Sequence record: MN445185.1
Origin: Escherichia phage vB_EcoM_EC001
Reading direction: 5' to 3' (one strand)
DNA length: 64,000 nucleotides
In this document: one piece after another, positions 25,703 to 37,312 of the stretch
Layout of the letters: every line of letters begins with the position of its first letter
Position numbering within the stretch: position 1 is the first letter of the stretch
Made by a program: the position numbers and the translations under genes
Notes under the pieces: generated by a model
What the model was told of the DNA's origin: nothing
What the model saw: only the letters and a program-made list of their open reading frames with translations
Databases searched by the model: none

Positions 25703-26254
25703 TTACGCTTGAGCCATGTCGGAAATGTCATAAACCAGACCATTCAACTCAGTAACGGTAATCAGTTTACTGATATCGACACCATCGCTCGGAACTTCGG
25801 TCAAATAAACCTCAACCGTACCTGTCCACGCCAGCGACTTTCCATTGAAACGCAGATTGTGTTTCGTGGAGGAAGTCATTGATTCTGTCGCGTAAATCTC
25901 GGTTGCGTCGATTAACCAATTGTATTTGGTTCGCAGCAAGGGAACAAGATCGGCAGCAGTCGACACGCCGGTGCCATCGACAGACAACACGACGTTCTCA
26001 AACAAATGAGCTACGTCCAATCGACGATAAGTAAGACCCATCTTACCGAACGTACCCTTCTCAATGATACCAGAAACATCAAGGTTGGTGTTCAGTCTGG
26101 TGTATTGCTCTGGGTCAGGATCGGCTGCGGTGATGTGTGCCGGGTTACCGAACGACAATTTATCGATGGTCACGCCCTTACCAGTCAGTCCAGGATTCTG
26201 AGACATGATGAGATCGTAAACCAACTCTTTTGCGGTTTTTCCAAATAAACTCAT
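25703..26254 (-). CDS. hypothetical protein (183 aa), last gene of the giant-protein operon
   Basis: ORF co-oriented and downstream of 26277..28538. Confidence 0.55.
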   Translation of the reverse strand: MSLFGKTAKELVYDLIMSQNPGLTGKGVTIDKLSFGNPAHITAADPDPEQYTRLNTNLDVSGIIEKGTFGKMGLTYRRLDVAHLFENVVLSVDGTGVSTAADLVPLLRTKYNWLIDATEIYATESMTSSTKHNLRFNGKSLAWTGTVEVYLTEVPSDGVDISKLITVTELNGLVYDISDMAQA

Positions 26255-26276: not shown

Positions 26277-28538
26277 CTATCGCGCTTGTGGTAGGAAAAT
26301 GTTCGCGATTTGTCGTGCTGGTATGATATCTAACGCGGCGTTGACGATGCTGCCCTGTGACCAGGCACTTGCCCAGTTCTGCGCCCAGATAGACGCGTTG
26401 ATTTTAGCCTGCGCGATGCCGTTGGTACGCTCGTAAAGCGTGGCAGCGCCCAACACAGACATAAATTCACTGAACTTGTTATCATCATCAAACACACCAA
26501 TATCAGTTACAATCGGCATGTACATAACACGCGACAGGTCACGAATAGTTACCTGTATATCACACGACAACGGCAGACCGTCAGCACGCCAACCTAAACC
26601 ACCTGTACCGAACTGGAGACTCAGGTTAGTTACCATGGCGTTACGCATGGAATAACGACCGCGAGAATAGCACTCCAGATAGAACGGGTGTGTAAACGAT
26701 TGTTTACCGGTTGCTAACGGACAAACTGCCGCTAACCAGAACGACAACGGGACAATCAGATCCTGGAACACATCTAAGTCGTTACCCGACCAACAGCGAA
26801 GGGGAATGCTTAGCGAGATATCGTCACCTGAGGTGTCTGAGGAGTCCCACACTTCCGGGAAGTCAATCACTGACGAGTTGTACAGCGACATAATCCCTGA
26901 TAAATGCAAGAAATCGAGTGCGCCTGTAAAGGCGGACTTCAACCCAGTAATGAGACCATCGACTGCGTCGAAACCAGTCTTACCACCAGAGAGGTTTACT
27001 TCCAAAGAACGTGCTTTCTGTGTGGCGGAGTTAACCGTGCCAGAGATTTCAGGTTCTTTGGTGGTGTTGGAGAACGAACGCCCTACGGTATCACGTCCAT
27101 CAACACGCCAAGTAATCCACTGCGAACCATTGCGTATCTCCGAAGCGATGTTCGAAGTTAACCCATCCATAGCGCCTTCTAAAATATCGATATAGTCTTT
27201 GAAGACGCTACCGACAGATTCTTTCTGGCCTTGGTCCATCCAGTTTTCAATCTTCCCAATGTCGAGATTATTCTCATCCATTGAGTTTGCTTCGGTCTGA
27301 CTTTTAGCAACCTGAGCCTGGTTCTTTTCAACCTGTGCCATACGCTCGGCAAGCTTTTTACGTTGCGCATCACCTTCGTTTTCGAAGTTTTCAGCCTTAC
27401 CCCCTTGTGACTGAGCATCCTGAATGCTGCCGTTCATCCCTGCTACCAGTTCGTCTTCTTTGTTGTCGACGTTTTCAAAACCAGCATCGTACCCTTTACC
27501 GGCTTTGGCTACGTATTCAAGGTTACGTAAAGAAACCTCGTACTGCGCAGCTTTCTCCAAATGGGTTGTTGAGTACGTCGCTTCCAGATAGAAGTTTCGC
27601 AAACGACGAGCCATGTCCTCTTCGTTACTCGACTCTTTACGAATTTTATCGATGGTTTTCGCCTGGTAGTTGGCTAATGTTTGGTAGCGGTTAATCATTC
27701 GATAGATATCGAACTCACCATCAGCTGTCCAGATTTCTGGCAGCATGGAGTACCACTCTTTGCGGTCGCCGTTGTACTTATTAGCAGTACCGCCTTTCTC
27801 AGACCCATCTACAGCATTAGCAAGCTGGAAAGTCCCTAACACACCCGTTGGCACCAATCGGCGATAAACTAACTGGGTGTTGACCATATTCTGCACAGCG
27901 CGCAGATACAAGTGCATTGTCGGTTTCACGTAGTAGTAGCGAGAAGTCTGCTTGTTCAGCACCATCTTCAACATACGTGGTGTAATTAGAATAACCGCAA
28001 AGGCAACCGTACCTACTGCGGCCCATATTGCTGCGGCGGCAACATACGTCCCCATCGCACGTAACATACCTGGGTAGTCACCTGTGCGTGCCAGATACGC
28101 TAGGTTGGAATCGTACATATTCGCGAAGAATGCAGCTACCCCGATATATCGAGGTTTACCGAAACGACAATGAAGATAAAAACTGTTTTGGTTAATAGCT
28201 TCGTAATAGAAAGTCCCTAGACGATAGGAACCACGTTGGTCTTGACCTTTAACGTACTTTGAGTACGAGCCACGACCTGCATCGGGTTGTGCAAAAGCAC
28301 CTGTTGAACTCGGATCAGCAAACATCGTAAACTGCGGCGGCGCATTTAACGCTTGCGAACCACCCATCGTGGTATCTTCAAACGAGAGCATCGCGTTAGA
28401 GTAACGACGCAAACCCAGGAAGCGCTCATCGCGCTGTGCGGTTGTACCGCCAAACAGGCCGGTTACCCATCCTGAATCTTTTAGTTGTCTTGCTTCCACG
28501 TAAAACCTCTCTGTAAGATGATTAGGGGGTGTTGCCAC
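26277..28538 (-). CDS. putative virion internal/ejection protein (753 aa) with one TM segment
   Basis: Long ORF directly downstream of the SLT giant gene; hydrophobic segment TYVAAAAIWAAVGTVAFAVILITP; function is inference from context. Confidence 0.5.
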   Translation of the reverse strand: MATPPNHLTERFYVEARQLKDSGWVTGLFGGTTAQRDERFLGLRRYSNAMLSFEDTTMGGSQALNAPPQFTMFADPSSTGAFAQPDAGRGSYSKYVKGQDQRGSYRLGTFYYEAINQNSFYLHCRFGKPRYIGVAAFFANMYDSNLAYLARTGDYPGMLRAMGTYVAAAAIWAAVGTVAFAVILITPRMLKMVLNKQTSRYYYVKPTMHLYLRAVQNMVNTQLVYRRLVPTGVLGTFQLANAVDGSEKGGTANKYNGDRKEWYSMLPEIWTADGEFDIYRMINRYQTLANYQAKTIDKIRKESSNEEDMARRLRNFYLEATYSTTHLEKAAQYEVSLRNLEYVAKAGKGYDAGFENVDNKEDELVAGMNGSIQDAQSQGGKAENFENEGDAQRKKLAERMAQVEKNQAQVAKSQTEANSMDENNLDIGKIENWMDQGQKESVGSVFKDYIDILEGAMDGLTSNIASEIRNGSQWITWRVDGRDTVGRSFSNTTKEPEISGTVNSATQKARSLEVNLSGGKTGFDAVDGLITGLKSAFTGALDFLHLSGIMSLYNSSVIDFPEVWDSSDTSGDDISLSIPLRCWSGNDLDVFQDLIVPLSFWLAAVCPLATGKQSFTHPFYLECYSRGRYSMRNAMVTNLSLQFGTGGLGWRADGLPLSCDIQVTIRDLSRVMYMPIVTDIGVFDDDNKFSEFMSVLGAATLYERTNGIAQAKINASIWAQNWASAWSQGSIVNAALDIIPARQIANIFLPQAR

Positions 28539-28547
28539 CCCCTACGA

Positions 28548-31500
28548 TTAGCTTGCTTTCCGACTTACGTTTAACGACGGTGTCGGTTGGGTTATTTCCT
28601 GCCTGCGTGCAGCTGAGCCCGGAGGAGCCACATTTGCCGCTTGCTGGATACTACCACCCCGTGTGTCGTTTGCCGCTCTCGGATTTGATTTCAAAATATC
28701 ACGAATCTCTTTCAAGTAATCGCGAGACTGAATCAGTACCTTGAGCTGCTGAACATCTATCGGGTCACCATTCAGCGTTGGCGTCGATGCTGTAGCATCA
28801 GAAGTTGGGGCGGCAACTGGACGAGCTGCTGCGTTAACCTGCGCTTCCGCGCCTGCTTTCACTTTAGCAACATCCGTTGCAGACAATCCTTCTGCTGCAG
28901 CTTGCGACGCTACGGTTTCGGCTGTTGTTGAGGCATCGGATGTTCCGGAACCACCTGTAGTTGGTGTAGGTGCTGCTGGTCCTACATTACCTGCGGCGGT
29001 AGCCATTGCATCTTGTGCCGCCATGGCCCCTTTCTGCGTCAATGCGTCATCACGACGATTAGCATTATCTGCCGGCAGGTTATCTGCTGGCGACAGACTC
29101 GGATCATTAGCGGCCGGTGCACCCATTGCTGCTGCCGGGTTGGTTGGTGAATTAGGCGACAAGCCTGCAACCATATCCTTCGTCTTACTCGGATCGGCAG
29201 CGACTTCGTTGGCAGAAATTGCGCCCATACGGCGGTTCAGTTCCTGAATAACCCCATCCACGCTACGTATACGACCGTTGCTGTAGAAGACGTTGGCATT
29301 CCCTCTCAATATTGCGGATGTAATCCCAGGAGCACTCGATGCCGCCATATTCGGATTACGCTTCCATGCTTCCAGGAATTTCTTACCGCCGCCCGCACCC
29401 AGGAAGTGATACAGATAAGCCACGGCTGGAGGTGGTGCTTTACCACCCAGGTCACGCTGTGCTTGTTGGATGTTGTCACGAATGAACTGTACACCCAATA
29501 TAGCATTCGCCCACGGGTCCATCTGGTTAACACGCGGAATACCGAACTTCCGCGAATACCCCTTCATCATCCCGTCCCACGTACCGTCAATAAACTGGAA
29601 CAACCCAGACGCCGAAGCATACGGGTTTTTAGCGGTGTAGTTAAATCCGGACTCCGCCTTAGCCATTGCTAACGCCACTGCAGGTGGCACGCCCATCATG
29701 TTCGCCGCATCGGTAATCAATGCTTTGATATTCGGAACGTTCAACGCACCCTTTCTACCCAACATTTCTATCGGGTATTTTTCAGCCAGTGACTTATAAT
29801 CACCGTCTTTCACATCACTCAGGTTAATCGAAGACGAACCAGTGGTCATTGCAGCGTAGTTCCGCACACCACCAACCGCATCGACGACTTGACCCAAGTT
29901 ACCCGGCACACCACCACTCGTACCCGATGGAATGTAGCCTGAGGCGCGAGCACCGTCAGATGACAAAGAATCTCCCGAACTGATGTTCGAGTCTTCTTCA
30001 TCTTCATCGGTGACTTCCAGAGAACTGCGGTTCTTGTTACGATCCTTCCAGCGCGCACGCTTGCCATTATTTCTAATGGCTTTAATCATGTTACGCACGG
30101 CAAGGTCAGCTTCTTTTGACAACAGCTTCAGCGTTTCCAGCTCGGCTTTAATAGACGATGGGTTCGTGTTAGCCTCACCCCCTAATGGGTTGATATTCAC
30201 TTCCCACACCGACTGTCTTATACCACCTTTCAAGCTGTAGGCTGTTGACATCATCAAGCTGATTTCGTACAGGTAACCACCAGTCAGCTTCAAGTTCAGC
30301 GGATCGGCTGTTGGCAGGTAACGCTTCACCCCAACCAAATACGTCATGAATACCGGTAAGAAACGGTCAAAGAACCACCGCTTCAAACGATCTTCTTTCG
30401 GTGTACCGATAGCGTCTGGAACCATCGAGGCGATTGCTTTCTTCCAATCTCCTTTGTAGCTTGCGGTTTTCACGTCAATGTCTTTGATGACGTTCTTCTC
30501 GAATACCGTGATCAACGTGCGGGTGGCGTTATCGATGGTGGTAAAGCCGTAAGTCTTCCAACGCACCGATTCCATCGCATTCATGTCTTTCTGGTCGAGC
30601 ACCGCATTCCAGTCTACCTGAATCTGAACCTGCTCTGTTCCGTCTTCCCAACCCTCTACCTTCGCCAGATTTTTATTACGTTCGTTATCCAACTGTCCAA
30701 GTTTGTTGATAGCTTCATCAACGCCCGCGGACTTAATCCCCTCCACGGCCGGTGCCATTCCGTACTTACGTGCTTTCTTATCGTCCATTCTGGACTTGAT
30801 TGCACGCTCGACTTCATTCTGCACTTCCATAACCTCTTCACCGCTCAAGAACTCCTTCGGTGTAAAGGTTACAACGTCCCAAGCTTTCGAGAAGAAACCT
30901 TGGTTGACTTTGCGTGGGTCTGTTAACGAAGAGAACGCTTTTGCATCCTTAGTCATCTTCATTTTGTTGAAGAGAGTCAGCATGTCCTCTTTCGATACTT
31001 TCTTCGCATCGCCGACGTCAGCCAACTGGATACTGTTCGGCATTGACTTCAGTGCCGTAATCCAGCGGAGATAAATCGGAATAAAGCGCTGAAGCATAAA
31101 CGCTTGGAAGGCCAACATCTCGCCTTTTTCCTCAACGTTAATACCGAACCCTTCAGCTAGCTTCTGAACGTCTTTTCCACTTAGCCCGCGGAGACTGGCT
31201 TGGCCATCTTCCGCGTAAGACACATACTCACGCAATGCGTCTTCTAAGTAACGCGCTTTCGCCCCGTCGTCCGACGACCACTTATCGTAATCACGGAAAC
31301 CGTACTGAGCTAAACGCATCTTATCCAGGTACTGGGTATAGGTAGTCGTTGCAATCCTGTACGCGGCGTAACCAGCCGCAGCGATCGCACCACCGATAAG
31401 AATTGCCGGCCAACCCACCGCAGTCACGACGGCAGATGCCGCAGTTGCCACAGCGGACACCGCGGGTGCCGCCAAACGGGTTACTGCGAACTTACCGACA

Positions 31501-34500
31501 TTCCACGCAGCCTTACCTAAAAGACCTACTGGTTTTAACACGCCCCATTTCGTGATAGAACCGAGTATATTACCCACAGTTCCCAAGATACTGACGATGG
31601 GACCGATGATAGGTAAGCTTTTCACCATATCCCACAGACCGCCAGATTTCCCTTTGGAGCCCTGCGCTTTCTCTTTCTTCTCCTTACGTTTCTCACGCCA
31701 ACGTTTGAAGAAGTTAAGGTAATCGCGTTTTTCATCACCTTCAGGCGGCTTGTTACGTTTACCGAACTTCGCAAACATGGTGCGAATAATGCCATCGTCA
31801 CCACCTGCACGGGATACTGATTCGCGCATGGTGTTAAACCATGACATCTCTTGCAAGCCAATCATTCGGTCCAAGCGTTCGAATAACCTTGCGCCTGCAG
31901 ACTTGGCGGCATTCTTCCCTTTGTTAATAACCCTCCCTGCTGCATCACGGGCGGTCTCAAGGTCTTCCTTCGCATCGCCGTAGACTTTACGGCCAGAAAG
32001 GCCACCTTTCGCGTTCAAATGGCTGCGATAAAACTCAGCAACATCATCGTCGCGTCCAGCCAACCGACGTTCAACTTCGTAACGTGTAGCAATGTCGTGT
32101 CGTGCTCCACGATATCCATCGAGCATATCCCCAGCCCGGCCTCGGAAACCACTGAACCAACCACGCAGGCGGTCACGTCCACGACCAAAGAACGCTTTTG
32201 TTCTTGACCAACGTCCACCAAAACGTTCAGACAGTGACGCTTTCGCGCGATCATACGCCCCGCGTACTGCACGACCGATCGTACTACCGCCACCCCCGAC
32301 GCCCTTCTCCATTTCCTCTGTCCAACTTTCGTCTTCCGGATCTCCCGGTAAACGTTGGTTCAACAGTTTATAGATACGGATAAGGATGTGGTTGGTTTTC
32401 TTGCCGGTTGATGAGAAGAGACTGAAACCACCGCCCCCACCATCTTTACGGCCTTTCCACCAACGCGTCAGTGGGTTGTCGGTAATCATGTCTTTCAGAC
32501 GATCGACACCACGTTTCGCAAAACCGAGCACTTTACCCGGTAAGCTCGTTACACGGTTGAACGCTTTCTGGAGACGTGTCTTTTCTTCGCCTTCCGGAAT
32601 CTCGTTCAGCCAGTCCTTAATCTTACCAACGATGCTGCCCGCTTTCGGTGACAGGAAATCCAGGAACCTTTTCGGTAGCTTAGCCACCTTATTAAAGCCT
32701 AAGCCAATCTTACTGGCCAGACCTTGGGTCAGTGCTTGGATTTTCCCGCCTTTATAGTAGCGGAGTTTACCCGCAGCGGCTAAGTCAGCGGCTGCTAATA
32801 TCAGATTACCTGCGGAGTCAACAATATCACTCCCCAGCTTGATGTCGTCCAGCGTTTTCAGCTGAACCATTTTACCATCAATGACCTGATAGTATTCTCC
32901 AGCTTCCAGACGTGCACCTTGCAGAACAACATTACCGTGGTCATCGTAAACGTCACGGATACCCAGTAGTCCTTTACCGAAAGAGCTTACCGCTTCAAAG
33001 CCACCACGGACACTACCGCTGATAAGGCCACGCATCCGGGTTAAGAAACCAGGACCTTCTCCGCCACCCATTCCTGCGACTTTACCGCGTGCCCAGCCAC
33101 CGAACTGGTTCAGTTTATTCCAGGCACCCTTAACACCACGTTTCGCAAAGCCACCGATTCCTGCTGCGGTGTCGAACAACACACCACCCCAACGACGAAT
33201 AAGCCCATCTTCACCGATGATAATACGACGGCGTTTACCGCCACCGCTACCACCACCAGGACGAGGTGGTCCCATCTCTTCGTCACCAGAACCAGCACCC
33301 CCTGCTAACGAAGCCAGGAGAACCCCTTCTTCGTCCATACTTCTGACGTGTTCCAGAATTTTCTGGAGGGTGTCACTGTTGTTATTACCCCGAATCGCTT
33401 CGATGATGCCGTCAAAGTTATTCCGTGGCGCTTCTTCGCCGCGGTTACGTTGACTCAACAATTCAACAAAGTTAGTCGAGGTTTCACCGTAGAGAACTGC
33501 GGCTAACTGCCGAGGCGACATTCCGCGGCCTTTACCACCGCCACGTAAAGCCGGCGGCAACGACGTGTCATCGGCACCACCATTTACCCCTTGGTTCATT
33601 CGGCGCAGATAGTCGCCTAACGCCGAACCGTTTTGCAGCTTACGTTGAATCTCCTGCTCACGAGTCAACGCACGACCGCTGCGTGTCTTACCCATTGCCA
33701 AGTCATTAAACAAGGTATAGGGATCGGACAGGTCTTTATCCACGCCGAAAGTGTCACTCTTCGCGTCGTAGTTAAAGATACCCGCATCGCGCAATGCTCG
33801 CTCACCGTAAATATTCACCGCCTCGTCGATAATTGCCTGACGTTGGGTGATAGATGACTGCACTGTGGAGATTTTGCGGGCCAGCTCGTTACTTAATTCG
33901 TTGCTACCGCCGACCAAGCTATCAGAATGCCCCTGTAACGCTTCCTTAATGCGTTCTGCGGCGTTTCCTGGCATATACCGATGAAGATGCATCGGGTCTT
34001 TCAGAATCGCTTCTACGTCGAATGCGCGGCCCTGCGAGGCTCGCGACTCGATATAGTCGGCGAGATGCTGTCGATCCTTCTGCGAGAGCGTTTTGCCGCG
34101 GTCAACAAAATCCACAGTGCTGTTAATGGAATTTTGGAGACGCAGGCGTTGTTCATCGTTTGCAACCGCCTTGCGTACGCGGTTACCGACCACTTTGCGG
34201 TCTACGAAACCACGGCTGGTGATGTCATATTCCAGGTCGGCATGTTCGCCATAGCCACGACGGACAGATTTGTTAATCTCTGCCAGCCAGGCAGGAATAA
34301 CTTCAACCAGGCTAAGATATGCTTTACGGTCAAACTTCGCCGAACGGCTTAACGTTTCGCCATTACGCTCGTCAAGGAAGGCTTTCTCGCGGTTTAGCGG
34401 TTGGACAATACCGAGTTCATTCAATACCCGGAACAAATCCGCCAACGGCCCTTGCGTTTCGCCTGCGATAGCTGAGTTCGAGATAGAGGAAAGATTACCA

Positions 34501-35669
34501 AAGGTGAACGCGCCTTTCTGCAGGCGTTTCATGACCTCTGGATTTTTCTCCATCTCCTCACGAGTCCATTTCTGGAGTTTCTCGATTTGTGGGCCGAGTA
34601 GTTTCTTCGCAAGGAATCCGCTACCCCACGCAGTTGCTTTATCACGAGCATTTGTTTTGCGACGTTCAGCAGTCAACGAAGAGCTGTCGCTCATGCCGAA
34701 ATCGTCTTCAACACCCATGCCGAGAACAGACTCTAACAAACCACGACCTTCGCCAAATATACCAGAAATCTTCTTCTTGGTATTTTCGCGAATCATGTCC
34801 ATAAACCCGTCAGCATAACGCAACGGGTTCATCCATTCCGCAGCCTGGCGTTTAACGTTCGCCCAACGGACTTCTGAGAAATCTTCCTTCGCGTAATCCG
34901 GCAATGCCGTGTTCTTCACGATGGCTTCTAAAGCAGGCGTATTACGATCGAACTCCGACTGCTTCATCTTCACGATGTCTTGGATGGCAAACAGGGTACG
35001 GTATTGCAGTTCGAGTTTCTTACGCTCGATGTTTAAGAATACCCCACGGCTTAACCCGGTTAGCAGGTTAATGTCTTTCGCCATCCCAATCATGGTTTGG
35101 TGCATTGCATCCGCACGCATCTCTTTGATGCTGTCGCGGAGCTTATCCTCTACCATGCGGTCCTGCAGCTGACGTTGTTCATCGGCATCCTTTGGCACAC
35201 CTGAGAATACGTCGCCCAGTTCACGATCCATCAATGCCTGATTCGGATCGTAGTTCTGGTAATCTAACTGGTCAGATTTTGACCACTTGTCGATGCGCTT
35301 AGTAACTGCATCCGGCAAGTATTTCTTCATCGTCGGACCGAGTTGGCGCGCTTGCATCTTCAGCGTGCGCTCGGTCTTCACAAGCTCCCCTTTCGTATGG
35401 GCGTAAATGTCCTTTGCTGCAGCTGCCGCTGACTGATAGCCCTCGTATGCATCAGCTGCCGGCTTAGGCATCCCCTTGAGGATAACTTGGTCGCGTTTCC
35501 CTTCTGGCCAGATAGTTGACAACGCCGACTTCCTGGCAACATTCAGGGTACTGAGTATCGGGCTTCGTTTTTTCTCGTCTTTGGGACGGGGTGGTTCACC
35601 GAAATCATCCCAGTCGTCGAGTCTATCTAAATCGATATCATCGAAACCGTCTTTGCCTCTTTTTGCCAT
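28548..35669 (-). CDS. giant virion protein (2373 aa) with lytic transglycosylase (SLT) domain near the C-terminus, internal TM/Ala-rich segment and Gly-rich tracts
   Basis: Uninterrupted 7.1-kb ORF; SLT signature AMAKAESGFNYTAKNPYASASGLFQFIDGTWDGM encoded around 29280-29680; hydrophobic AVSAVATAASAVVTAVGWPAILIGGAIAAAGYAAY. Confidence 0.85.
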   Translation of the reverse strand: MAKRGKDGFDDIDLDRLDDWDDFGEPPRPKDEKKRSPILSTLNVARKSALSTIWPEGKRDQVILKGMPKPAADAYEGYQSAAAAAKDIYAHTKGELVKTERTLKMQARQLGPTMKKYLPDAVTKRIDKWSKSDQLDYQNYDPNQALMDRELGDVFSGVPKDADEQRQLQDRMVEDKLRDSIKEMRADAMHQTMIGMAKDINLLTGLSRGVFLNIERKKLELQYRTLFAIQDIVKMKQSEFDRNTPALEAIVKNTALPDYAKEDFSEVRWANVKRQAAEWMNPLRYADGFMDMIRENTKKKISGIFGEGRGLLESVLGMGVEDDFGMSDSSSLTAERRKTNARDKATAWGSGFLAKKLLGPQIEKLQKWTREEMEKNPEVMKRLQKGAFTFGNLSSISNSAIAGETQGPLADLFRVLNELGIVQPLNREKAFLDERNGETLSRSAKFDRKAYLSLVEVIPAWLAEINKSVRRGYGEHADLEYDITSRGFVDRKVVGNRVRKAVANDEQRLRLQNSINSTVDFVDRGKTLSQKDRQHLADYIESRASQGRAFDVEAILKDPMHLHRYMPGNAAERIKEALQGHSDSLVGGSNELSNELARKISTVQSSITQRQAIIDEAVNIYGERALRDAGIFNYDAKSDTFGVDKDLSDPYTLFNDLAMGKTRSGRALTREQEIQRKLQNGSALGDYLRRMNQGVNGGADDTSLPPALRGGGKGRGMSPRQLAAVLYGETSTNFVELLSQRNRGEEAPRNNFDGIIEAIRGNNNSDTLQKILEHVRSMDEEGVLLASLAGGAGSGDEEMGPPRPGGGSGGGKRRRIIIGEDGLIRRWGGVLFDTAAGIGGFAKRGVKGAWNKLNQFGGWARGKVAGMGGGEGPGFLTRMRGLISGSVRGGFEAVSSFGKGLLGIRDVYDDHGNVVLQGARLEAGEYYQVIDGKMVQLKTLDDIKLGSDIVDSAGNLILAAADLAAAGKLRYYKGGKIQALTQGLASKIGLGFNKVAKLPKRFLDFLSPKAGSIVGKIKDWLNEIPEGEEKTRLQKAFNRVTSLPGKVLGFAKRGVDRLKDMITDNPLTRWWKGRKDGGGGGFSLFSSTGKKTNHILIRIYKLLNQRLPGDPEDESWTEEMEKGVGGGGSTIGRAVRGAYDRAKASLSERFGGRWSRTKAFFGRGRDRLRGWFSGFRGRAGDMLDGYRGARHDIATRYEVERRLAGRDDDVAEFYRSHLNAKGGLSGRKVYGDAKEDLETARDAAGRVINKGKNAAKSAGARLFERLDRMIGLQEMSWFNTMRESVSRAGGDDGIIRTMFAKFGKRNKPPEGDEKRDYLNFFKRWREKRKEKKEKAQGSKGKSGGLWDMVKSLPIIGPIVSILGTVGNILGSITKWGVLKPVGLLGKAAWNVGKFAVTRLAAPAVSAVATAASAVVTAVGWPAILIGGAIAAAGYAAYRIATTTYTQYLDKMRLAQYGFRDYDKWSSDDGAKARYLEDALREYVSYAEDGQASLRGLSGKDVQKLAEGFGINVEEKGEMLAFQAFMLQRFIPIYLRWITALKSMPNSIQLADVGDAKKVSKEDMLTLFNKMKMTKDAKAFSSLTDPRKVNQGFFSKAWDVVTFTPKEFLSGEEVMEVQNEVERAIKSRMDDKKARKYGMAPAVEGIKSAGVDEAINKLGQLDNERNKNLAKVEGWEDGTEQVQIQVDWNAVLDQKDMNAMESVRWKTYGFTTIDNATRTLITVFEKNVIKDIDVKTASYKGDWKKAIASMVPDAIGTPKEDRLKRWFFDRFLPVFMTYLVGVKRYLPTADPLNLKLTGGYLYEISLMMSTAYSLKGGIRQSVWEVNINPLGGEANTNPSSIKAELETLKLLSKEADLAVRNMIKAIRNNGKRARWKDRNKNRSSLEVTDEDEEDSNISSGDSLSSDGARASGYIPSGTSGGVPGNLGQVVDAVGGVRNYAAMTTGSSSINLSDVKDGDYKSLAEKYPIEMLGRKGALNVPNIKALITDAANMMGVPPAVALAMAKAESGFNYTAKNPYASASGLFQFIDGTWDGMMKGYSRKFGIPRVNQMDPWANAILGVQFIRDNIQQAQRDLGGKAPPPAVAYLYHFLGAGGGKKFLEAWKRNPNMAASSAPGITSAILRGNANVFYSNGRIRSVDGVIQELNRRMGAISANEVAADPSKTKDMVAGLSPNSPTNPAAAMGAPAANDPSLSPADNLPADNANRRDDALTQKGAMAAQDAMATAAGNVGPAAPTPTTGGSGTSDASTTAETVASQAAAEGLSATDVAKVKAGAEAQVNAAARPVAAPTSDATASTPTLNGDPIDVQQLKVLIQSRDYLKEIRDILKSNPRAANDTRGGSIQQAANVAPPGSAARRQEITQPTPSLNVSRKAS

Positions 35670-35698
35670 AATGTTTCTTCCAATTCAGGAGCTTAAAA

Positions 35699-37312
35699 GT
35701 GAGAAAGCTAAACTGGGTTGACTTTTACTTGTTAAACGTCAACAAGTCCCTGGTGTCGCATTTAAAACCAGTTACAACAACAGACACCTTTCAGGGACTG
35801 ACGAAAAACTTTCACCCTGAAGGACTGTATTCAACCGAAATTTTTGGCCTCACAGGGAGCGAAGCACGAGACTCAACGTTCTCGTACATTGATATCAAAC
35901 TGGATATCATTTCGCCGACCGTTTGTTTGGCATTGTTCCAGCTGAAACAGCTGTACGAAGAAATCTGTTCCGGGAAGCGATTCGCTATCTGGAATGAGAA
36001 AGAAAAAGATTTCGAGCCGGCTCTGCCCAGTGATAAAGGTGCAGACACCGGCTTCAACTTCTTCCTACGCTACTACGAACAACTGACGCCAGGACGCAAC
36101 GAATCAATGCGTCGCGACGAGACAGTCGATTTCTTCAATAAGTTCCGTCCGGTCAGTCTCAGCCGCTATGTGCTGGTTCTACCTGCGGGATTACGTGATT
36201 TGGTCATTCGTCAGGATGGCCGCGACCAAGAAGAAGAGATTGGCGGACTCTACCGCCGTCTGATTTCTCTGGCACGTGCAGTCCCCGACCGCAGTACGCG
36301 AACGGAACTGACTGACCCGGTTCGCTGGAAGCTCCAACAAACCTTTAATGACATCTGGATGTACTTCTTCAACATCCAAGACGGTAAAGGTGGTTTTGCG
36401 CGTCGTAAAGTGACGTCACGTAAGTTAATGAACGGTACGCGTAACGTACTGTCTTCATTCTCAACCGGTTCCAAGGTCATGGGTCGCGAAGATGCGATTC
36501 GTCCAACGGATACCCGTATCGGTTTGTACCAAACCCTGAAGGCGTTACTGCCTGTGGCTCAATACCACATCCGTGAACGTTACCTCAGTAACATCCGGGC
36601 AGGGGATGGCAACTTATACGGCGTTAACACCAAAACACTCAAGCGTGAGTTCCTGGAAGTCTCCGGGCGGGTGTATGACCTTTTCACTACCGACGATGGC
36701 ATCGAAACACTCATCAACAGAATGGAAGCGCGCGAGCTTCGACATAAACCGCTGATGATTGATCCGGACCATTACGTGGCATTAATCTACCAAGACAAAC
36801 GCAGCTTCAAAATCTTTTACGATATTGAAGACCTGCCGGAAGGACGTGACCGTAAGCTTGTCCGCGGACTGAGCTTAGCGGAACTCCTCTATTTGTCAGG
36901 TTACGATATTTGGAATGACTACTTCTCGTTCATCACGCGTTATCCGGTTACGGGACGCGGTTCGACTTACTCCTCGACCATAAGATTGGAGACCACCACT
37001 TCTTCCCTCTATTTGCATGAACTGGAAGACGATTGGGTCACGTTAAAAGAGAAGGGTGCAATTAGCTTCCCTGATCGTACCGTGAAAACCTTTGTGGAAT
37101 CCATGGCACCACATCCATCCCGATTAGGTGGATTGGGTGGTGACTACGATGGTGACACCGGCTCAGCAAACTGCCCGATGTCAACCGAAGCGCTCGAGGA
37201 AAATCGGAAGTGGGTCAGTTCGAAAAACTACTGGTTTGCAACAGACGGCAGTTTCAAAATCAATCCGGTTAACAACGTGATTAAAAGAACGACTGCTGCG
37301 CTGTTGAAATGA
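35699..37312 (+). CDS. multisubunit RNA polymerase beta-prime-like subunit, N-terminal catalytic fragment (537 aa)
   Basis: GGDYDGDTGSANCPMSTEALEE aligns residue-for-residue with the beta-prime catalytic loop [22 protein letters not shown] (three Asp, P+12, E+16, A+17, E+20), E. coli sequence from memory; GTG start with SD AGGAGC. Confidence 0.6.
   Translation: MRKLNWVDFYLLNVNKSLVSHLKPVTTTDTFQGLTKNFHPEGLYSTEIFGLTGSEARDSTFSYIDIKLDIISPTVCLALFQLKQLYEEICSGKRFAIWNEKEKDFEPALPSDKGADTGFNFFLRYYEQLTPGRNESMRRDETVDFFNKFRPVSLSRYVLVLPAGLRDLVIRQDGRDQEEEIGGLYRRLISLARAVPDRSTRTELTDPVRWKLQQTFNDIWMYFFNIQDGKGGFARRKVTSRKLMNGTRNVLSSFSTGSKVMGREDAIRPTDTRIGLYQTLKALLPVAQYHIRERYLSNIRAGDGNLYGVNTKTLKREFLEVSGRVYDLFTTDDGIETLINRMEARELRHKPLMIDPDHYVALIYQDKRSFKIFYDIEDLPEGRDRKLVRGLSLAELLYLSGYDIWNDYFSFITRYPVTGRGSTYSSTIRLETTTSSLYLHELEDDWVTLKEKGAISFPDRTVKTFVESMAPHPSRLGGLGGDYDGDTGSANCPMSTEALEENRKWVSSKNYWFATDGSFKINPVNNVIKRTTAALLK

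Follow-up and report, generated by a model that had tools for sequence, protein, structure and literature searches.

A stretch of 64,000 nucleotides (nt) from Escherichia phage vB_EcoM_EC001 (MN445185.1), referred to below as the window, carries on its minus strand a single open reading frame (ORF) of 7.1 kb that encodes a protein of 2373 amino acids (aa). We consider this protein, at a probability of roughly 80%, to be a giant constituent of the tail lumen that is the first to leave the virion, cuts peptidoglycan and probably also acts as tape measure. The role as a muralytic protein of the tail lumen is held with high confidence, while that of tape measure is no more than the most likely additional role. 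An initial annotation, made from the sequence of the window, had proposed a giant virion protein with a lytic domain. This description stands; what it had missed is that the protein is already known and named, that is as gp239 of phage SPN3US and gp181 of phiKZ, in the phiKZ-like (Chimalliviridae-type) jumbo phages. New here are a duplicated domain, the swapping of the lytic domain among relatives, a C-terminal module of nearly constant length and the finding that lengths do not scale as a simple ruler would demand, which are refinements and do not constitute a new kind of system. The gene and its parts are as follows.

28548..35669, minus strand: whole gene, ortholog of SPN3US gp239/phiKZ gp181 (ORF, identity to SPN3US_0239, BLASTP match to phiKZ gp181, phrog_3201).
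31620..35669, minus strand: N-terminal part, aa 1–1350, predicted to be mostly alpha-helical, candidate ruler (AF2, conserved columns).
31362..31619, minus strand: two hydrophobic Ala/Gly-rich segments, aa 1351–1372 and 1399–1433, in the region aa 1351–1436 (Kyte-Doolittle).
30291..31343, minus strand: duplicated helical domain of ~100 aa, copies at aa ~1443–1552 and ~1694–1793, with a variable linker (hhalign).
29250..29720, minus strand: predicted SLT-type lytic transglycosylase domain, aa 1984–2140, catalytic E2006-S2007, partners Y2085 and H2088 (PF01464, gp144 alignment, Foldseek).
28551..29249, minus strand: Ala/Pro/Ser/Thr-rich low-complexity linker and conserved terminal segment, aa 2141–2373 (composition, alignment).

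The reading frame, recovered at precisely the position and length given by the initial annotation, starts with ATG, is preceded by a GGAAG ribosome-binding site ~9 nt 5' of the start codon and is the longest ORF of the region. GC skew is negative throughout the gene, as expected for coding on the minus strand. The four longest antisense ORFs within it (up to 182 aa) had no match in a PHROG search and were dismissed for this reason. The gene recurs with 96.5–97.8% nucleotide identity in >20 Seoulvirus genomes, including JN03, Proteus phage 7, the SPLA and SPFM phages and SPN3US, and a large protein collection yielded 91 full-length homologs of its product. On the basis of these genomes and homologs, the GC skew and the antisense check, the giant ORF is a genuine gene and not a chance frame.

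As compared to SPN3US_0239 (AEP84072.1), identity amounts to 96.8% at the nucleotide and 98.7% at the amino acid level, and the window is, judged by its sequence, that of a Seoulvirus, i.e. an SPN3US-like Salmonella jumbo phage. SPN3US gp239 (2372–2373 aa) can be equated with the window protein, the strains being sisters: neighbours and motifs are the same, and only ~1.3% of the residues differ. The Thomas laboratory designates it tail tape measure protein (PMC5105663, PMC5694885, PMC10052503), whereas its GenBank label, ‘putative tail fibre protein’, is misleading. The protein further matches phrog_3201 with an E value of 0, and BLASTP aligns it with phiKZ gp181 in collinear blocks at aa 12–267, 438–~600 and 1383–2349 (E 3e-29). 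SPN3US, phiKZ and phage Goslar also share the arrangement of the locus: virion RNA polymerase genes lie upstream in divergent orientation, and the next gene downstream is that of the gp182/gp238/gp203 ring. The full-length collinear match and the common synteny therefore identify the giant protein as a full-length positional ortholog of phiKZ gp181, a relationship that extends beyond a shared lytic domain. phiKZ gp181 (2237 aa), described as virion-associated peptidoglycan hydrolase or ‘tail-associated endolysin’, resembles the window protein in the collinear N-terminus, the middle and the whole C-terminal half as well as in the flanking gp182 and virion RNA polymerase genes; it also keeps the duplicated domain and the terminal helix, and the two SLT domains are 35.6% identical. 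It differs in that overall identity is only ~23%, in being 136 aa shorter and in having no segment at the hydrophobicity threshold, as compared to two in the window protein.

Two database entries of this family deserve a separate remark. In SPFM20 (LR535917.1, P0052) and SPFM1 (LR535901.1), the homolog aligns as ~100 separate blocks of 20 aa with 95–100% identity in exactly reversed order. As 20 aa correspond to 60 nt, that is one flat-file line, the 60-nt lines of this region seem to have entered the records in reverse order, and the resulting 2364-aa ‘tail fiber protein’ appears to be a nonsensical database artefact.

The enzymatic part of the protein is the best-defined one. The SLT signature pointed out in the initial annotation lies at aa 2005 (AESGFNY) and aa 2019 (SASGLFQFIDGTW), and 367 residues lie between the catalytic Glu and the C-terminus, in keeping with the ~350 residues estimated there. 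The designation as a C-terminal lytic transglycosylase is right as to the domain and does not hold strictly as to its location, since ~230 residues follow. Pfam profile SLT (PF01464) matches aa 1984–2072 with E 1.3e-9 and 38.1 bits (cut-off 21.3), while a search of NCBIfam gave only SLT-like matches below threshold. Structures of the phiKZ endolysin gp144 (PDB 3BKH and 9XPS) match aa 1987–2139 with E 2.5e-15, and the alignment pairs Glu115 with E2006, S116 with S2007, Tyr197 with Y2085 and His200 with H2088. In gp144, Glu115 carries out catalysis and is activated by its partner Tyr197 (PMC5406664); the presence of the catalytic Glu in the window protein, a check suggested at the outset, is thereby borne out. 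Across an alignment of the 91 homologs (MAFFT FFT-NS-2), E2006 is conserved in 95% and Y2085 in 93% of the sequences, and E2006, S2007, Y2085 and H2088 range from 92 to 96%. An AF2 model of aa 1437–2150 reaches pLDDT values of 80–94 over aa ~1946–2150. When the modelled SLT domain was compared with known structures using Foldseek, 3BKH ranked first (E 2.1e-7), followed by phi6 P5, MltE, MltF and Slt70, and the predicted fold is helical and goose-lysozyme-like. Thus, the SLT domain is real, with catalytic residues intact as far as alignment and modelling can tell, and muralytic activity has been measured in the orthologous phiKZ gp181: 60,000 U/mg according to Briers 2008, as reviewed in PMC5380687, where the tabulated chemistry is left between lysozyme and transglycosylase.

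Among solved structures, phiKZ gp144 (PDB 3BKH, 3BKV and 9XPS chain S) is the closest to the catalytic domain. It is nevertheless a different protein carrying a paralogous domain, namely an endolysin of 260 aa that begins with a peptidoglycan-binding domain and also forms part of the neck whisker ring of phiKZ. A second likeness concerns gp16 of T7, the ‘internal virion protein D’ of T7-like phages, which likewise provides a virion-borne SLT domain for entry: tblastn retrieved these proteins with 33–36% identity over aa 1980–2150, and the alignment of the C-terminal part weakly matched PDB 6YT5 and 7EYB (T7 gp16-type) in a profile search. This similarity, together with the adjoining genes for virion-packaged RNA polymerase, could suggest that the giant protein is packaged in the head and injected with the DNA, like T7 gp16 and other inner-body proteins. 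However, the similarity to gp16 is confined to the SLT domain. Moreover, gp16 is a head-packaged protein with an N-terminal SLT domain that forms an ejectosome, whereas the ortholog of the window protein is tail-associated.

The evidence for the latter comes from published work on SPN3US. There, gp239 (259 kDa) is the largest protein that mass spectrometry revealed when purified virions were analysed (PMC5694885, PMC10052503), and this proteomics on a 98.7%-identical ortholog answers the question of virion presence raised by the initial annotation. A gene-64 amber mutant, 64(am), produces tailless particles that are filled with DNA and lack gp239 (PMC5105663), and in 255(am) particles, likewise tailless, the protein is reduced more than 10-fold (PMC10052503). 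It is solely mass spectrometry that associates the protein with the tail. As these DNA-filled tailless heads keep the head and ejection proteins while gp239 is missing or depleted (PMC5105663, PMC10052503), the choice between ejection protein and tail-lumen protein, which had been left open initially, resolves towards the tail, and packaging of the giant protein in the head is hardly to be expected any more. In phiKZ, orf181 is the largest gene and essential according to transposon sequencing (Tn-seq). Experiments on close orthologs have accordingly established presence in virion and tail, muralytic activity of the isolated domain and an essential gene.

A different identity is suggested by existing labels: most records as well as phrog_3201 carry ‘tail fiber protein’, and phiKZ gp181, in line with a proposal from the older phiKZ literature, has been tabled as a ‘needle-like cell-puncturing device’ (PMC5380687). 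A fibre or a cell-puncturing needle is, however, highly improbable. The fibre label is apparently an inherited annotation without experimental basis, and the protein has neither fibre-type repeats nor a beta-helix; it combines a mostly helical prediction with hydrophobic segments and an enzyme domain. As to the needle, in the cryo-electron microscopy (cryo-EM) atlas of phiKZ gp164 is the spike, gp163.1 its tip and gp101 the hub, with gp181 not among them (PMC13250141), and in Goslar the spike is gp13 and the spike cap gp48, while gp204, the giant protein of this phage, is not among the modelled proteins. These structures from 2026 largely refute both versions. With the phiKZ spike assigned to gp164/gp163.1, the lumen is left as the place for gp181.

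The 91 homologs of the giant protein measure 2197–2862 aa, with a median of 2404 aa and a coefficient of variation of 4.8%, at identities down to 22%. The part preceding the hydrophobic segments is predicted to be 63–72% helical by low-confidence AF2 models; in the model of aa 1–1190 helix accounts for 63%, including long helices at aa 69–117 and 162–253. A motif at aa 252–262, KNTALPDYAKE, is invariant in the family. Gly-rich low-complexity stretches at aa ~690–900 are followed by a small beta-rich module at aa ~906–979, and the Gly-rich tracts listed in the initial annotation were located at aa 804 (PGGGSGGGKRRR) and aa 1077 (GGGGGFSLF). Neither a fold comparison of the aa 1–1190 model with the PDB, which returned nothing below E 1, nor a profile search of the PDB with the N-terminal alignment revealed a known relative of this part.

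The Ala-rich membrane-like segment that had been noticed near residue 1430 corresponds to aa 1399–1433 and is accompanied by a second, previously overlooked one at aa 1351–1372. With a Kyte-Doolittle threshold of 1.6, the two segments reach 19-aa means of 1.91 and 1.79, respectively, and ~90% of the homologs contain one or two such hydrophobic Ala/Gly-rich segments above 1.6 at 55–63% of their length. A proline in the middle of the segment at aa 1399–1433, P1421, is 99% conserved, which suggests a helical hairpin, and the segments in aa 1351–1436 are candidates for membrane insertion.

Downstream of the hydrophobic region, a helical domain is present in two copies that hhalign relates with a probability of 98.6% (E 6.8e-16). 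Its signature reads R-x2-QYG ... E ... RF-x-P; invariant residues are R1452, Q1455, Y1456, G1457, E1476, R1528, F1529 and P1531 in the first copy and R1703, G1708, W1765, R1769 and P1772 in the second. AF2 models of the domain are helical with pLDDT values of 80–93. The domain matched no Pfam family and no PDB entry by sequence, and the PDB profile search with the C-terminal alignment returned solely SLT-domain proteins. A third copy, sought in aa 1–1340 by hhalign, was not found (probability 0.2%), nor did a BLASTP self-comparison disclose any further internal repeat.

The protein ends, beyond the lytic domain, in the Ala/Pro/Thr-rich tail that the initial annotation had described correctly (19–29% Ala, 6–10% Pro and 14–21% Ser plus Thr over aa 2101–2300) and in a terminal segment at aa ~2305–2340, DVQQLKVLIQSRDYLKEIRDILK, whose aligned counterpart forms the C-terminus of phiKZ gp181. 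Conserved positions of the family include L2319 and R2370. We infer that aa 2141–2373 would anchor the protein in the baseplate hub. The lytic domain itself is exchanged among relatives: P0041 and Goslar gp204 (COG3179) carry a GH19 chitinase-type domain at its place, and among other relatives P0082 has an additional M23 peptidase and P0084 an additional VanY domain. Length varies mostly within aa 253–1452 (standard deviation 113 aa), while the C-terminal module, counted from R1452 onwards, hardly changes in size (903 +/- 61 aa). An apparent compensation between middle and C-terminal lengths (r = -0.72) was dismissed as an artefact, since it stems from boundaries set by regex; with alignment-based boundaries the correlation is only -0.29. 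The window protein contains not a single cysteine, and family members have 0–6; this may reflect passage through an oxidising periplasm or chance.

Whether the protein also determines tail length has to be judged from several features. Ruler-like are its status as product of the longest gene, the predicted helicity of the N-terminal part, a length that is conserved despite 22% identity and the position of its gene directly upstream of the gene for a ring between hub and tube initiator. This ring gene is the following.

26277..28499, minus strand: ortholog of SPN3US gp238/phiKZ gp182, hexameric ‘spacer’ ring gene (BLASTP, PDB matches).

Its product matches phiKZ gp182 in BLASTP (E 1e-40), PDB 9XQS chain K (PHIKZ182) with E 2.3e-62 and the Goslar ‘tail tube initiator complex protein gp203’ with E 5e-57. 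phiKZ gp182 is a hexamer that separates, as a spacer ring, the tube initiator gp88 from the hub gp101, and it is regarded as second tube-initiator ring in the centre of the baseplate (PMC13250141). In SPN3US, gp238 is an essential tail protein. In T4, the tape-measure gene 29 is directly followed by genes 48 and 54, and the order found for the giant gene thus matches a tape-measure context.

Known tape measures offer further points of comparison. T5 Pb2 is expelled first at infection, as we propose for the window protein. Pb2, which is listed as muralytic (PMC5380687), and gp41 of PDB 9B45 are long, mostly helical tape measures of the tail lumen that combine a ruler part, hydrophobic segments and a lytic domain on the C-terminal side, and the window protein, with its candidate ruler and probable lumen location, resembles them in this. 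They show no homology to it outside the SLT domain, and the window protein is 2–3 times longer and contains a duplicated domain not seen there. Likewise, the match of the window protein to 9B45 chain a (‘gp41 tape measure protein’, internal SLT; E 1.7e-4) is due to the SLT domain only. That a tape measure of known structure contains such a domain nevertheless counts in favour of a ruler.

Several observations weigh against a simple ruler or limit the proposal as a whole. Seoulvirus tails are 160–200 nm long (PMC6614189), and 2373 residues in alpha-helical conformation (0.15 nm per residue) would extend over 356 nm, that is ~2 times the tail. The same holds for phiKZ, where gp181 would measure 336 nm as a helix versus a tube of 162 nm (43 rings x 37.73 Å) in a tail of ~200–215 nm. 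For the window protein, the ratio of residues to tail length is about half of that of lambda gpH or T4 gp29. In addition, protein and tube do not scale with each other: Goslar has a tube of 180 nm (46 rings x 39.16 Å), which exceeds that of phiKZ by 11%, whereas gp204 (2252 aa) is larger than gp181 (2237 aa) by only 0.7% and its N-terminal part is 1% shorter, in a comparison comprising two phages. No tape-measure profile in Pfam and NCBIfam matched, which weighs little as tape measures do not form a single family by sequence. With a mean pLDDT of just 50.7, the N-terminal AF2 model is of low confidence. phiKZ gp181 lacks a segment above the hydrophobicity threshold at the equivalent position, indicating that membrane insertion may not be general. 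Finally, gp181 and gp204 are neither modelled nor mentioned in the 2026 cryo-EM atlases of phiKZ (PMC13250141) and Goslar; their absence fits a symmetry-mismatched or disordered lumen protein and is no positive evidence.

From these considerations one could argue that the protein is a lysin of the tail lumen or baseplate and nothing else, ejected to cut peptidoglycan and to open the membrane, with tail length being set by sheath and tube or by another protein. Protein length that does not follow tube length in phiKZ versus Goslar, a chain ~2 times as long as a helical ruler needs, the missing match to a tape-measure family profile and the fact that ~40% of the protein (aa 1437–2373) is globular or of low complexity instead of ruler-like helix all speak in favour of this idea. 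However, we regard it as unlikely. No alternative tape-measure candidate is known in these phages, publications treat gp239/gp181 as tape measure, the homologs keep an unusually constant total length in spite of their strong divergence, and the gene adjoins a tube-initiator ring gene in a T4-like manner. Of the whole protein, only the part before the hydrophobic segments fits the tail, aa 1–1350 corresponding to 202 nm and the respective part in phiKZ to 195 nm. The caution that the initial annotation had exercised with regard to a tape-measure role was justified nonetheless, since neither the length arithmetic nor the comparison of phiKZ with Goslar fits a simple ruler. In view of this arithmetic, the lack of scaling and the lack of structural localisation, we accept the muralytic role in the lumen with high confidence and tape measure only as the most likely extra.

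The order of neighbouring genes is that of SPN3US: gp238 and gp237 lie downstream on the same strand, while the upstream genes gp240 and gp241 are divergent and code for beta subunits of the virion RNA polymerase. The start codon of the giant gene on the minus strand and that of gp240 on the plus strand (GTG at 35699) are a mere 29 nt (35670–35698) apart; therefore, each promoter must lie within the coding sequence of the opposite gene or farther off. At the other end, the stop codon of the giant gene is followed by a potential RNA structure of about -18 to -19.4 kcal/mol (z = -2.05):

28520..28544, minus strand: 9-bp GC-rich stem-loop UAGGGGGUG-GCAA-CACCCCCUA, directly 3' of the giant-gene stop, without a U-run.

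The GTG at 28538 listed by the program as start of the gp238 ortholog falls inside this hairpin. The GTG at 28499, which is preceded by GAGAGG and yields 740 aa as annotated in SPN3US, is the likely start.

Three further observations concern the surroundings. The gp238/gp182 family matches PDB 36za chain rp, ‘Capsid decorator gp77’ (648 aa), with E 5e-56, as strongly as the Goslar tube-initiator protein; either the depositor chose an unusual name, or another phage employs this fold in its capsid. The 183-aa ortholog of gp237 (25703–26254, minus strand) matches Pfam DUF7941 with E 7e-27, covering the N-terminal 176 of its 276 positions, as well as PHROGs named ‘virion structural protein’; it is a short copy and had no sequence match in the PDB. 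DUF7941 proteins are chimallivirus-specific and form flexible, baseplate-anchored filaments for host recognition (Goslar preprint). In Goslar (NC_048170.1, 211817–212245), a group I intron is annotated in the virion RNA polymerase cluster adjoining the locus of the gp181 homolog.

How a tail-lumen protein of this size would operate can be outlined as follows, with position in the lumen, orientation, membrane insertion and ruler function being what we infer. By analogy with other tape measure proteins, a few copies would reside inside the tail tube, the helical N-terminal ~1350 residues running up the lumen and the C-terminal module of ~920 residues lying at the baseplate end, adjoining the gp238 ring. 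During assembly, the protein would most likely serve as scaffold or ruler for tube polymerisation. Upon contraction of the sheath, it would be expelled ahead of the DNA, and the SLT domain could then cut peptidoglycan locally by means of Glu2006 and Tyr2085, while the hydrophobic Ala/Gly-rich hairpin may enter the inner membrane and help to open a conduit. A bolder idea, which we put forward as quite a long shot, is that the C-terminal module, composed of hairpin, duplicated domain, exchangeable lytic domain, linker and terminal helix, acts as first-out membrane-remodelling translocon, seeding or lining the lipid vesicle that receives DNA and virion proteins in nucleus-forming jumbo phages. 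If so, the duplicated domain would be a membrane- or hub-interacting element, and the constant total length would reflect packing in a fixed lumen instead of a ruler of 1.5 Å per residue.

Taken together, the ‘tail fibre protein’ label in GenBank and PHROG is wrong or unsupported and yet is spreading to new records, while the putative tape-measure role, which is repeated in the literature, is at odds with simple ruler arithmetic. For the jumbo-phage family, this raises the questions of how its largest virion protein is arranged and what role the duplicated domain may play in entry.

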